From Eledone cirrhosa (Eukaryota): a stretch of 64,000 nucleotides of DNA. Each line of letters opens with the position of its first letter. Position 1 is the stretch's first letter. Under the pieces are notes generated by a model. That model was not told the DNA's origin. It made no database searches and worked only from the letters and a program-made list of their open reading frames with translations. Below, piece after piece: positions 1 to 8,972 of the stretch. The DNA is taken from the NCBI GenBank assembly GCA_964016885.1, contig OZ024740.1, positions 268,646,001 to 268,710,000 on the forward strand, given 5' to 3'. The position numbers were made by a program, and so were the translations under genes.

Positions 1-2313
1 CTTTTTCTATGAAAATTAGTAGTGGGCAGACTAATTTGCATAGAGTGTGAGTACGTACCGGTTCAACGGAGACGTTAAAAACAAATAACGAAACGAAATT
101 AAATTTCGTTTCGTTTGTAACTCACTTTTGTATGACTGACGCTTAAACAATTAAGTTAAAAATGTACATCTACATATGCATACTGAAATACTAGTATGCA
201 TATGAATACACACACGTATACATATGTAGATGTACCAAGTCTTTCACTGGTTACTTTACTGTGAGTAATCCAGCTATTCTGTATGTAAACACACAGACAA
301 ACCGGTTTTTAGAGTCATACTGGTTTTCGAGGAAACACCTTTCCTCTATTCTCCAGAAAGCCAGACAAGGAATATTGAACTAGTTTCGTTGTTGTTACAA
401 CTCATCAGCAATATTTACCTATCTACCGGCCTTTCTGGAGAATCGTAAAAGCACATATCGTTATATGCTTTTTCTATGAAAATTAGTAGTGGGCAGACTA
501 ATTTGCATAGAGTGTGAGTACGTACCGGTTCAACGGAGACGTTAAAAACAAATAACGAAACGAAATTAAATTTCGTTTCGTTTGTAACTCACTTTTGTAT
601 GACTGACGCTTAAACAATTAAGTTAAAAATGTACATCTACATATGCATACTGAAATACTAGTATGCATATGAATACACACACGTATACATATGTAGATGT
701 ACCAAGTCTTTCACTGGTTACTTTACTGTGAGTAATCCAGCTATTCTGTATGTAAACACACAGACAAACCGGTTTTTAGAGTCATACTGGTTTTCGAGGA
801 AACACCTTTCCTCTATTCTCCAGAAAGCCAGACAAGGAATATTGAACTAGTTTCGTTGTTGTTACAACTCATCAGCAATATTTACCTATCTACCGGCCTT
901 TCTGGAGAATCGTAAAAGCACATATCGTTATATGCTTTTTCTATGAAAATTAGTAGTGGGCAGACTAATTTGCATAGAGTGTGAGTACGTACCGGTTCAA
1001 CGGAGACGTTAAAAACAAATAACGAAACGAAATTAAATTTCGTTTCGTTTGTAACTCACTTTTGTATGACTGACGCTTAAACAATTAAGTTAAAAATGTA
1101 CATCTACATATGCATACTGAAATACTAGTATGCATATGAATACACACACGTATACATATGTAGATGTACCAAGTCTTTCACTGGTTACTTTACTGTGAGT
1201 AATCCAGCTATTCTGTATGTAAACACACAGACAAACCGGTTTTTAGAGTCATACTGGTTTTCGAGGAAACACCTTTCCTCTATTCTCCAGAAAGCCAGAC
1301 AAGGAATATTGAACTAGTTTCGTTGTTGTTACAACTCATCAGCAATATTTACCTATCTACCGGCCTTTCTGGAGAATCGTAAAAGCACATATCGTTATAT
1401 GCTTTTTCTATGAAAATTAGTAGTGGGCAGACTAATTTGCATAGAGTGTGAGTACGTACCGGTTCAACGGAGACGTTAAAAACAAATAACGAAACGAAAT
1501 TAAATTTCGTTTCGTTTGTAACTCACTTTTGTATGACTGACGCTTAAACAATTAAGTTAAAAATGTACATCTACATATGCATACTGAAATACTAGTATGC
1601 ATATGAATACACACACGTATACATATGTAGATGTACCAAGTCTTTCACTGGTTACTTTACTGTGAGTAATCCAGCTATTCTGTATGTAAACACACAGACA
1701 AACCGGTTTTTAGAGTCATACTGGTTTTCGAGGAAACACCTTTCCTCTATTCTCCAGAAAGCCAGACAAGGAATATTGAACTAGTTTCGTTGTTGTTACA
1801 ACTCATCAGCAATATTTACCTATCTACCGGCCTTTCTGGAGAATCGTAAAAGCACATATCGTTATATGCTTTTTCTATGAAAATTAGTAGTGGGCAGACT
1901 AATTTGCATAGAGTGTGAGTACGTACCGGTTCAACGGAGACGTTAAAAACAAATAACGAAACGAAATTAAATTTCGTTTCGTTTGTAACTCACTTTTGTA
2001 TGACTGACGCTTAAACAATTAAGTTAAAAATGTACATCTACATATGCATACTGAAATACTAGTATGCATATGAATACACACACGTATACATATGTAGATG
2101 TACCAAGTCTTTCACTGGTTACTTTACTGTGAGTAATCCAGCTATTCTGTATGTAAACACACAGACAAACCGGTTTTTAGAGTCATACTGGTTTTCGAGG
2201 AAACACCTTTCCTCTATTCTCCAGAAAGCCAGACAAGGAATATTGAACTAGTTTCGTTGTTGTTACAACTCATCAGCAATATTTACCTATCTACCGGCCT
2301 TTCTGGAGAATCG
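1..2313 (-). repeat. Tandem array of 467-bp unit (~5 copies, runs off window start); HHR on minus strand
   Basis: ctttttctatgaaaattag recurs at 1, 468, 935, 1402, 1869; units appear identical by eye; no ORF. Confidence 0.97.
371..415 (-). ncRNA. Type I hammerhead ribozyme; first of 5 minus-strand copies (also 838, 1305, 1772, 2239)
   Basis: Exact reverse complement of 2635-2679. Confidence 0.9.
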
Positions 2314-5300
2314 ATTACTCACAGTAAAGTAACCAGTGAAAGACTTGGTACATCTACATATGTATACGTGTGTGTATTCATATGCATACTAGTATTTCAG
2401 TATGCATATGTAGATGTACATTTTTAACTTAATTGTTTAAGCGTCAGTCATACAAAAGTGAGTTACAAACGAAACGAAATTTAATTTCGTTTCGTTATTT
2501 GTTTTTAACGTCTCCGTTGAACCGGTACGTACTCACACTCTATGCAAATTAGTCTGCCCACTACTAATTTTCATAGAAAAAGCATATAACGATATGTGCT
2601 TTTACGATTCTCCAGAAAGGCCGGTAGATAGGTAAATATTGCTGATGAGTTGTAACAACAACGAAACTAGTTCAATATTCCTTGTCTGGCTTTCTGGAGA
2701 ATAGAGGAAAGGTGTTTCCTCGAAAACCAGTATGACTCTAAAAACCGGTTTGTCTGTGTGTTTACATACAGAATAGCTGGATTACTCACAGTAAAGTAAC
2801 CAGTGAAAGACTTGGTACATCTACATATGTATACGTGTGTGTATTCATATGCATACTAGTATTTCAGTATGCATATGTAGATGTACATTTTTAACTTAAT
2901 TGTTTAAGCGTCAGTCATACAAAAGTGAGTTACAAACGAAACGAAATTTAATTTCGTTTCGTTATTTGTTTTTAACGTCTCCGTTGAACCGGTACGTACT
3001 CACACTCTATGCAAATTAGTCTGCCCACTACTAATTTTCATAGAAAAAGCATATAACGATATGTGCTTTTACGATTCTCCAGAAAGGCCGGTAGATAGGT
3101 AAATATTGCTGATGAGTTGTAACAACAACGAAACTAGTTCAATATTCCTTGTCTGGCTTTCTGGAGAATAGAGGAAAGGTGTTTCCTCGAAAACCAGTAT
3201 GACTCTAAAAACCGGTTTGTCTGTGTGTTTACATACAGAATAGCTGGATTACTCACAGTAAAGTAACCAGTGAAAGACTTGGTACATCTACATATGTATA
3301 CGTGTGTGTATTCATATGCATACTAGTATTTCAGTATGCATATGTAGATGTACATTTTTAACTTAATTGTTTAAGCGTCAGTCATACAAAAGTGAGTTAC
3401 AAACGAAACGAAATTTAATTTCGTTTCGTTATTTGTTTTTAACGTCTCCGTTGAACCGGTACGTACTCACACTCTATGCAAATTAGTCTGCCCACTACTA
3501 ATTTTCATAGAAAAAGCATATAACGATATGTGCTTTTACGATTCTCCAGAAAGGCCGGTAGATAGGTAAATATTGCTGATGAGTTGTAACAACAACGAAA
3601 CTAGTTCAATATTCCTTGTCTGGCTTTCTGGAGAATAGAGGAAAGGTGTTTCCTCGAAAACCAGTATGACTCTAAAAACCGGTTTGTCTGTGTGTTTACA
3701 TACAGAATAGCTGGATTACTCACAGTAAAGTAACCAGTGAAAGACTTGGTACATCTACATATGTATACGTGTGTGTATTCATATGCATACTAGTATTTCA
3801 GTATGCATATGTAGATGTACATTTTTAACTTAATTGTTTAAGCGTCAGTCATACAAAAGTGAGTTACAAACGAAACGAAATTTAATTTCGTTTCGTTATT
3901 TGTTTTTAACGTCTCCGTTGAACCGGTACGTACTCACACTCTATGCAAATTAGTCTGCCCACTACTAATTTTCATAGAAAAAGCATATAACGATATGTGC
4001 TTTTACGATTCTCCAGAAAGGCCGGTAGATAGGTAAATATTGCTGATGAGTTGTAACAACAACGAAACTAGTTCAATATTCCTTGTCTGGCTTTCTGGAG
4101 AATAGAGGAAAGGTGTTTCCTCGAAAACCAGTATGACTCTAAAAACCGGTTTGTCTGTGTGTTTACATACAGAATAGCTGGATTACTCACAGTAAAGTAA
4201 CCAGTGAAAGACTTGGTACATCTACATATGTATACGTGTGTGTATTCATATGCATACTAGTATTTCAGTATGCATATGTAGATGTACATTTTTAACTTAA
4301 TTGTTTAAGCGTCAGTCATACAAAAGTGAGTTACAAACGAAACGAAATTTAATTTCGTTTCGTTATTTGTTTTTAACGCCTCCGTTGAACCGGTACGTAC
4401 TCACACTCTATGCAAATTAGTCTGCCCACTACTAATTTTCATAGAAAAAGCATATAACGATATGTGCTTTTACGATTCTCCAGAAAGGCCGGTAGATAGG
4501 TAAATATTGCTGATGAGTTGTAACAACAACGAAACTAGTTCAATATTCCTTGTCTGGCTTTCTGGAGAATAGAGGAAAGGTGTTTCCTCGAAAACCAGTA
4601 TGACTCTAAAAACCGGTTTGTCTGTGTGTTTACATACAGAATAGCTGGATTACTCACAGTAAAGTAACCAGTGAAAGACTTGGTACATCTACATATGTAT
4701 ACGTGTGTGTATTCATATGCATACTAGTATTTCAGTATGCATATGTAGATGTACATTTTTAACTTAATTGTTTAAGCGTCAGTCATACAAAAGTGAGTTA
4801 CAAACGAAACGAAATTTAATTTCGTTTCGTTATTTGTTTTTAACGTCTCCGTTGAACCGGTACGTACTCACACTCTATGCAAATTAGTCTGCCCACTACT
4901 AATTTTCATAGAAAAAGCATATAACGATATGTGCTTTTACGATTCTCCAGAAAGGCCGGTAGATAGGTAAATATTGCTGATGAGTTGTAACAACAACGAA
5001 ACTAGTTCAATATTCCTTGTCTGGCTTTCTGGAGAATAGAGGAAAGGTGTTTCCTCGAAAACCAGTATGACTCTAAAAACCGGTTTGTCTGTGTGTTTAC
5101 ATACAGAATAGCTGGATTACTCACAGTAAAGTAACCAGTGAAAGACTTGGTACATCTACATATGTATACGTGTGTGTATTCATATGCATACTAGTATTTC
5201 AGTATGCATATGTAGATGTACATTTTTAACTTAATTGTTTAAGCGTCAGTCATACAAAAGTGAGTTACAAACGAAACGAAATTTAATTTCGTTTCGTTAT

Positions 5301-8300: not shown

Positions 8301-8972
8301 GAGAATAGAGGAAAGGTGTTTCCTCGAAAACCAGTATGACTCTAAAAACCGGTTTGTCTGTGTGTTTACATACAGAATAGCTGGATTACTCACAGTAAAG
8401 TAACCAGTGAAAGACTTGGTACATCTACATATGTATACGTGTGTGTATTCATATGCATACTAGTATTTCAGTATGCATATGTAGATGTACATTTTTAACT
8501 TAATTGTTTAAGCGTCAGTCATACAAAAGTGAGTTACAAACGAAACGAAATTTAATTTCGTTTCGTTATTTGTTTTTAACGTCTCCGTTGAACCGGTACG
8601 TACTCACACTCTATGCAAATTAGTCTGCCCACTACTAATTTTCATAGAAAAAGCATATAACGATATGTGCTTTTACGATTCTCCAGAAAGGCCGGTAGAT
8701 AGGTAAATATTGCTGATGAGTTGTAACAACAACGAAACTAGTTCAATATTCCTTGTCTGGCTTTCTGGAGAATAGAGGAAAGGTGTTTCCTCGAAAACCA
8801 GTATGACTCTAAAAACCGGTTTGTCTGTGTGTTTACATACAGAATAGCTGGATTACTCACAGTAAAGTAACCAGTGAAAGACTTGGTACATCTACATATG
8901 TATACGTGTGTGTATTCATATGCATACTAGTATTTCAGTATGCATATGTAGATGTACATTTTTAACTTAATT
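2313..8972 (+). repeat. Same 467-bp unit in inverted orientation (~14.3 copies), ending directly in (TA)n
   Basis: Reverse complement of the 1-2313 unit starts at gattactc (2313) and repeats every 467 bp; ends ...aacttaatt|atatat at 8972; only one substitution noticed (T>C at 4379). Confidence 0.97.
2635..2679 (+). ncRNA. Type I hammerhead ribozyme; first of 14 plus-strand copies, every 467 bp up to 8706-8750
   Basis: Stem I aatattg/caatatt; core CTGATGA; stem II gttgt-aaca-acaac; GAAA; palindromic stem III (a)actagt(t); GUU triplet, predicted cut after 2672; stem I extends to 2607-2702. Confidence 0.9.

Follow-up and report, generated by a model that had tools for sequence, protein, structure and literature searches.

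The first 8,972 nt of the window (the whole stretch of Eledone cirrhosa DNA that was analyzed, 64,000 nt) belong to an array of a 467-nt unit in two opposed arms, joined 5'-to-5' and with (TA)n on both sides of the element. The left arm (1..2313) has its ribozyme sense on the - strand and continues 392 nt upstream of the window; it is 2,705 nt long (5.8 units) and ends in (TA)n at a fixed position, site B. Its hammerhead cores are at 408, 875, 1342, 1809, and 2276, plus one before the window. The right arm (2313..8972, + strand) is 6,660 nt long (14.3 units), contains 14 hammerheads, and has its 3' end at unit position 229, in site A. A (TA)n target microsatellite follows it (8973..9024), and a second (TA)n run precedes the left arm. 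The arms meet head-to-head at 2313, where truncated 5' ends at unit positions 400 (left) and 108 (right) share one base. As assembled, the whole element starts at C1:268645609, is 9,364 nt long, and has 20 hammerheads.

We found that the units are nearly identical. The only inter-unit substitution in 1-8972 is a T>C change at 4379 (+ strand; unit position 306). Unit position 303 (2975, + strand) is A in all 19 covering units of both arms, and T is the family state. These results confirm the 467-nt period and near-perfect unit identity described in an earlier note on this DNA, and its figure of about 19 units agrees with the 19 CUGAUGA cores counted inside the window (14 on the + strand and 5 on the -). 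The note had described one homogeneous array; this was wrong, as 1-2313 lies on the - strand and 2313-8972 on the +. It had also called the array giant and long for its class; an exceptional length does not hold for this genome, where arrays of 10.7, 11.0, 12.0, and 17.8 kb occur elsewhere. Retrozyme arrays of up to 300 units are reported in the accessible part of Li et al. (2026, 10.64898/2026.07.22.740005). There is no ORF of 100 aa in 1-8972, hence no RT/GIY-YIG ORF there; the element is non-autonomous. The best reading is that the insertion is a very young copy of a common non-coding, ribozyme-bearing element. The note's assignment to the non-LTR retrozymes, with recent insertion, was supported by the genome-wide copies and by the long-array and allele analyses given below.

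The 467-nt unit and its ribozyme

One monomer, from cut site to cut site, occupies 2673..3139 (+ strand; unit positions 1-467) and has a GC content of 0.35. The first + hammerhead (2635..2679) is type I with a minimal stem III, and cleavage is predicted after 2672. Folding places stem I at 2635-2641/2673-2679, stem II at 2649-2662, and GAAA at 2663-2666; the predicted stem III is a single A-U pair capped by CUAG, and the triplet is GUU. The complete type I hammerhead with palindromic stem III that had been proposed was recovered as a minimal type I fold, with the palindrome at 2665-2672. In the folding model, stem III would form only via this palindrome in a dimer. The match to Rfam Hammerhead_HH9 (38.6 bits, E 4.3e-8) is below the gathering score of 52, and an Rfam scan at the gathering score gave no match. 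In relatives, the stem II pair U445-A456 is A-U and the triplet is GUC.

The circular monomer has a minimum free energy of -159.3 kcal/mol (z -11.6 vs 100 shuffles). Across 63 haplotypes, the consensus fold comprises 140 pairs and shows compensatory and wobble changes. Changes between subfamilies mostly preserve the circular fold and are compensatory at 20/412, 111/126, and 445/456.

The fixed 3' ends of the arms lie within this unit. Site A (2901..2906, + strand; unit positions 229-234) is the fixed 3' end of one arm and the putative start of reverse transcription, and site B (2972-2974, + strand) is the other fixed 3' end. Across loci, site A falls at unit positions 226-236 and site B at 296-304. 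The tail between them (2907..2974, + strand; about 70 nt) is one long hairpin and the most conserved part of the unit (99.3%).

Two-armed insertions in the genome

We found that the unit belongs to a dispersed family. The genome-wide copy search that the earlier note had proposed gave 5,142 exact ribozyme cores, and there are 2,453 site-B ends. Opposed arms adjoin each other at 68 of 95 loci (L120 was dropped before this count as a near-duplicate of L119). Sixty of the 68 two-armed loci have one A end and one B end; none has two A ends and none has two B ends. Among the other 27 loci, 7 have a 5-20 nt site-A stub facing a B arm. Both flanks are TA-rich at 56 of the 60 A+B loci, and 3 of the remaining 4 have 7-10 bp direct repeats (read by eye). 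In short-read contigs from run X1, the unit gives way to (TA)n at 2901, 2906, and 2974.

Some one-armed loci adjoin another element (PLE-A at L024, a Hydra-like element at L043, and also L042 and L034). These may be co-insertions or later deletions and were left out of the evidence. L042 had no protein match.

The A+B rule corresponds to the mark left by Penelope-like elements, an inverted copy plus a tail. The earlier note had missed the two arms and their fixed ends, which link the element to target-primed reverse transcription of the Penelope type. According to the parts of the reports compared (PMC11167929, PMC8557442), the Eledone family shares with canonical Penelope-like elements, such as Poseidon of Anolis, a hammerhead within the repeat, partial tandems, a 5'-truncated copy in inverted orientation, a tail on one side, and targets that are AT-rich or (TA)n, and probably also two internal reverse transcription start sites bounding the tail and the cutting and extension of both DNA strands. 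In contrast to those elements, it has no ORF, a tail of about 70 nt rather than 30-40, start sites that are U-rich rather than AC-rich, and arms of up to 29 units; the pairing of one A with one B end per insertion is unstated for them in the same parts. We are nearly certain that mobilization is of the Penelope type. A search for an autonomous element with the 467-nt unit as its terminal repeat found none in 50 GIY-YIG loci of 10,596 candidates, and the tail had no significant likeness to Hydra-type, H2, or PLE-A tails (p 0.4-0.9). Candidate RTs are a 713-aa ORF of Hydra type and ORFs of the PLE-A and Neptune-like kinds.

The template of the arms

The two arms of an insertion resemble each other closely. 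Over 60 loci, the median distance between arms is 0.6%, vs 3.3% from one locus to another. In five two-armed arrays of 9-18 kb, no difference between the arms is fixed, and cross-arm divergence is <=0.0002 in the three of these that were measured. Identical monomers are common to long arrays on different chromosomes.

Rare alleles carried by every unit of both arms were mostly A>G on the ribozyme strand (19/31 sites; T>C, 4/31). In contrast, rare alleles confined to one arm were A>G in 21/171 and T>C in 16/171 (Fisher p 2e-8 between the two classes). These counts exclude homopolymer positions and arm ends, which were masked. A structure control gave a similar picture: among changes that keep a pair, fixed alleles were A>G in 21 vs C>T in 2 and singletons 20 vs 21, and at unpaired sites A>G made up 7/9 of the fixed alleles vs 6/49 of the singletons. 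Adenosines 337, 341, and 342 recur in unrelated haplotypes. An ADAR neighbor preference was at most a weak trend (5' G in 3/38). Because the whole-array rare alleles are mostly A>G and the one-arm alleles are not, these comparisons of sequence suggest that an RNA template underwent A-to-I editing before it was multiplied. The bias is strand-specific and therefore points to transcription on the ribozyme strand.

Based on these results we think it probable that the element is a non-LTR retrozyme and that two Penelope-type active sites, acting in coordination, reverse-transcribed it from an RNA circle; we favor this circle as the origin of the long, uniform arms. Arrays would be transcribed on the ribozyme strand. 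The hammerheads, dimeric via the palindrome, would release 467-nt monomers, and a host ligase would circularize them, as is known for the class. The highly paired RNA may then undergo A-to-I editing. A Penelope-type RT/GIY-YIG protein would cut both strands of a (TA)n target, given the enzymology of Frangieh et al. (2024), and each 3' end would prime cDNA within the RNA. One end would use site A and its partner site B, ~70 nt apart and as a rule on one template, as the observed end pattern indicates. Both cDNAs would circle a variable distance, passing the ribozyme site, and end joining that uses little or no homology would link their far ends into a back-to-back pair of arms, with junctions like those observed. 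The rolling-circle cDNA proposed in the earlier note gains support of an indirect kind, from the uniform arms and from the A>G alleles fixed throughout both of them. More tentatively, we suggest retrotransposition from single edited circles, in which the RT pair would prime at two specialized sites and make up to about 30 rounds per arm, and all units of a 10-18 kb insertion would carry the edits of one RNA molecule as fixed changes, which would found new subfamilies.

Alternatively, a Penelope-type insertion might be born short (about 840 + 590 nt suffices) and its arms later grow by unequal exchange or DNA slippage, as the accessible part of Li et al. (2026, 10.64898/2026.07.22.740005) proposes for retrozyme arrays. 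Periodic variants favor such growth: 111G is present in 6/10 units of the left arm of G56, with a period of 3, and periodic variants also occur within arms of L079, G384, L092, L080, and L041. Such patterns point to duplication at the DNA level or to multimeric templates. A founder that was short and had one position-303 copy per arm would also fix 303A. However, the near-zero differences between the arms of the five long arrays mean that both arms, if born short, grew 4 to 27 units almost at once. The monomers shared across chromosomes also argue against later growth, as does the finding that no locus with cross-arm divergence >0.1% is longer than 3.8 kb among the 50 A+B loci that were measured. 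The long arrays were chosen for length, which weakens this case. We consider a short birth followed by growth unlikely.

It is also conceivable, and in our judgment quite improbable, that the template was a linear multimer, transcribed from an existing long array and left uncleaved, with the ribozyme slow or dispensable and both sites priming on the last unit. The arms do read through the predicted cut site. Arm 5' ends showed no clear enrichment there: 5 cases among the 95 loci were suggestive, but the genome-wide count was 10 matches at 8 places vs 5 at a control site (p 0.16). At L126, two alleles occur in the outer units of each arm but in none of the inner units, a pattern that fits a multimer. 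Marker alleles of G56 and G30, rare in our sample, were found in other long arrays (288, 69, and 163 genome-wide matches); long potential donors therefore exist for both, and the argument that they had no donor failed. In the published parts compared, ribozyme mutants insert normally (Frangieh et al., 2024, PMC11167929) and 8/9 Xenopus dimers failed to cleave (Li et al., 2026). However, copies that truncate at the 5' end are unable to lengthen arrays, an edit in a multimer would mark single units rather than all 8-24 units of both arms, and the hammerhead has been kept with compensatory change. The no-donor argument held for the 303A of the window, which has no long donor in this assembly: its 26-mer has 22 genome-wide matches, 18 of them inside the window array, and none is in another long array. 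An assembly artifact (fold-back or repeat miscount) would fit the lack of 303A among the alleles listed for four public runs, whose contigs drop rare variants, but is highly improbable given a junction that is asymmetric (unit 400 to 108), junctions that vary among 68 loci with the outer ends fixed, and the presence of sites A and B in independent contigs.

Several observations count against the favored reading of a Penelope-type retrozyme copied from an RNA circle. They include the periodic variants, the L126 pattern, and the G56 and G30 donors; the arms of L022, which come from two subfamilies; and a haplotype switch within an arm at L188 and L189. The window's own variant, 303A, is T>A rather than A>G, and there is no correlation between the length of arrays and the divergence of their arms (rho 0.01, n=50). 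The absence of an autonomous partner among the loci searched counts in the same direction, as does the report that the Anolis element used mainly unprocessed RNA in vitro (Frangieh et al., 2024, PMC11167929, in the part compared). A joint that goes back 467 in runs X1, X4, and X5 was rejected as evidence for a circle, as it fits tandem DNA equally. One 496-nt contig of run X4 (depth 4.5; another organism label) was not used.

Relation to known elements

The element class is already known. We did not find the two-site rule or the editing signature in the portions of the retrozyme and Penelope literature compared, and the supplements of Li et al. (2026) may list similar families. If the A>G signature is editing, an RNA-level change enters germline DNA through retrotransposition, and the RT may copy many kilobases from a small circle. 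If the reading of single edited circles is true, heritable variation in a genomic viroid-like element would stem mainly from RNA editing. The same portions of the literature call open, for animal retrozymes, what machinery moves them and whether circles are templates, and, for Penelope elements, how inverted-plus-tail insertions are produced. Because this family has a short template and thousands of insertions that start at fixed sites, both questions are testable given a candidate RT and a 467-nt RNA.

Non-autonomous members of the Chlamys clade, for example MRC1, are likewise Penelope derivatives with multicopy head-to-tail insertions. Unlike the Eledone family, they are green-algal, their 3' end resembles an autonomous partner, and their clade is without canonical hammerheads, according to the part of the report compared (Craig et al., 2021, PMC8557442). 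Retrozyme repeats are said, in the accessible text, to hold no conserved motif that identifies the mobilizing element (Cervera & de la Pena, 2020, PMC7229834; de la Pena, 2020, PMC7761336; Li et al., 2026). As far as these sources describe them, metazoan non-LTR retrozymes share with our family thousands of copies, low GC (35%), tandem units that are non-coding and carry a type I hammerhead, a highly self-paired monomer, and Penelope-like elements in the same genome (PMC7229834, PMC7761336, 10.64898/2026.07.22.740005). They are described as head-to-tail, whereas most Eledone insertions consist of two arms in opposition whose ends are fixed at A and B, and the inherited variants of the Eledone family are A>G-biased. 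A stem III of one pair plus a palindromic tetraloop is also found in the axolotl HHR_Amex1, as described in the part of the literature compared.

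Structure and genomic distribution of the 467-nt repeat

We found that the array in the window is made of two opposed arms. Tandem Repeats Finder identified two period-467 arrays (window 1-2313 and 2313-8972) containing the same unit in opposite orientations. An earlier note had described a single giant homogeneous array. The period and homogeneity held, with one substitution between units in the right arm (at 4379) and none in the left, but the single array is two arms joined at 2313. The complete element is 9,364 nt, starting 392 nt upstream of the window. Its arms (5.8 and 14.3 units) meet 5' to 5' and are set in (TA)n. 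As the note had also proposed, every unit contains a minimal type I hammerhead with a palindromic stem III (Rfam HH9, 38.6 bits, E 4.3e-8, below the gathering score). Stem III is a single A-U pair capped by CUAG, so its formation is predicted to require pairing with the palindrome in another copy. Units are numbered from the predicted cut (window 2673 is unit position 1).

The array is one member of a dispersed family. The 3.0 Gb genome, possibly that of an octopod judging by a SINE-like repeat at window 18482-18810, contains at least 5,142 exact 31-nt ribozyme cores and at least 2,453 ends at site B (a fixed 3' end of the unit, below) followed by TATATA; both counts are lower bounds. Other arrays reach 10.7, 11.0, 12.0 and 17.8 kb, so the exceptional length once claimed for this one was not borne out. 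A sister family built of 423-nt units (L170, L046, L153, L116, L104, L030) is ~67% identical over unit positions 144-383 and shares the tail region (p 0.001). Its hammerhead has the same CUAG stem III, a GUA triplet and often altered core bases. The array is genuine and young, and belongs to an established class, the non-LTR retrozymes. Passages in PMC7229834 and PMC7761336 describe these elements and their circular RNAs, with Penelope elements as suspected drivers.

Anatomy of the insertions

We sampled 95 loci: the 38 best DNA hits, 18 from pattern hits (length was the reason for choosing many of them), and a series of 39 consecutive site-B hits along the chromosome holding the window. Adjoining opposed arms were present in 68. 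Of these, 60 had one end at site A (226-236) and one at site B (296-304), two fixed 3' ends ~70 nt apart that bound the tail. No two-armed locus had an AA or BB pair; selection for site B excluded AA in 39 of the loci, where BB was still possible. The remaining eight were clipped by the fetched sequence (2) or had some other end (6). Inner junctions were scattered over the whole unit, usually with 0-9 bases in common. Flanks were TA-rich on both sides in 56/60 A+B loci, and three of the other four had direct repeats of 7-10 bp. At both A and B, short-read contigs from public run X1 pass out of the unit and into (TA)n, confirming the two ends. Seven of the 27 loci without adjoining opposed arms had a site-A stub of 5-20 nt.

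This arrangement matches Penelope-like elements, with their inverted copy and their tail (Craig 2021, PMC8557442). In Frangieh 2024 (PMC11167929), a Penelope-type protein in vitro cuts both DNA strands and extends them, beginning at two positions inside the RNA that bound the tail; the two fixed 3' ends would mark comparable start sites. Li et al. 2026 (10.64898/2026.07.22.740005) base their case for a Penelope origin on co-occurrence and on similarity of terminal repeats, and invoke local expansion for retrozyme arrays. In a word search of its text, 'tail' and 'octop' were absent and 'inverted' occurred in a reference only. Listings from full-text literature searches, a scope outside which most subscription papers fall, yielded no report of two-armed retrozyme insertions, the one-A-one-B rule or inherited retrozyme editing. 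The insertion anatomy is new mechanistic evidence for a known class.

An 18-nt duplication ends precisely at site A in two neighbouring units (L040, 2264-3231), and a 13-nt duplication begins at the cut site in L108 (about 2898-2911); both might reflect re-priming. In five loci (L024, L043, L042, L034, L050) a retrozyme arm is fused directly to the 3' part of another element ending in (TA)n, possibly by co-insertion of two RNAs or deletion between neighbours.

A probable common template for both arms and an A>G bias

Arms within a locus differed by a median of 0.6%, compared to 3.3% between loci. In five two-armed arrays 9-18 kb long, the arms had no fixed differences. An allele that is rare (in ≤5 of 95 loci) yet fixed in all units of both arms predates the insertion. 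On the ribozyme strand, such alleles were A>G at 19/31 sites and T>C at 4/31. One-arm alleles, taken as later DNA mutations, lacked this bias, with A>G in 21/171 and T>C in 16/171 (p 2e-8 for the difference between the two sets).

Selection for folding does not account for the bias, because C>T also gives a G-U pair: pair-keeping changes were 21 A>G versus 2 C>T among fixed alleles, and 20 versus 21 among singletons. At unpaired sites, A>G made up 7/9 fixed changes versus 6/49 singletons. Clusters of A>G fell repeatedly in one and the same hairpin in distant haplotypes (L079, L127, G30). ADAR chemistry is well established, and the simplest cause of the bias, judging from these alleles, would be A-to-I editing of paired RNA.

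An edit made on one monomer would be found in every unit only if this monomer was multiplied. Rolling-circle reverse transcription would multiply an edited monomer into all units in a single step. The arms continue through the ribozyme cut site, and the window array has a private allele, 303A (window 2975), in all 19 units that is absent from other long arrays.

Other patterns indicate that further processes take place as well: duplication at the DNA level, copying from multimeric templates, or switching between templates. Periodic variants were present inside arms (G56, L079, G384, L092, L080, L041), L126 had alleles common to the outer units of both arms only, the two arms of L022 came from different subfamilies, and the haplotype changed partway along one arm in L188 and L189. 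Marker alleles of G56 and G30 were present in other long arrays. There was no overall relation between array length and age.

Penelope families and other elements near the array

Several Penelope families are present in the genome; no significant sequence common to them and the 467-nt unit was found in 50 GIY-YIG loci. One of them, a young Hydra-type family, is marked by 713-aa ORFs, the motifs DKT and CxCx5C, and ends rich in U that lie ~85 nt apart. Its copies at L193-L196 (e.g., G000:C1:255843100-255847300) have intact 713-aa ORFs and 97-98% identity. The core of its hammerhead-like motif is altered. A first look gave 86,245 candidate Hydra-like proteins.

In the window, a 5'-truncated, frameshifted Penelope-like element (11633-13579, + strand) encodes RT, a CX4CxxC linker and GIY-YIG, and has its own hammerhead in its terminal repeat. 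It ends at the long tail in (TA)n, and family copies are 93-97% identical. Matches to this coding element ended 55 nt before its window end in 14/48 cases; like the 467-nt unit, it has two alternative ends, here 55 nt apart. A small two-armed insertion at 10172-10750, consisting solely of this terminal repeat in a (TA)n target, has the long end on the left, the short end on the right and a 55-nt tail. At the protein level, a second Penelope family (46945-48185, + strand) is 56-65% identical to this one; on the opposite (-) strand, there are two hammerhead-like motifs, at 46653 and 43261. The window also contains LINE-like RT fragments (RVT_1, zf-RVT; 49277-58217, - strand), a PIF1 helicase fragment, possibly from a Helitron (28879-29901, + strand), and three tandem copies of a SINE-like 108-nt sequence, with a short run of TA after each copy (18482-18810).
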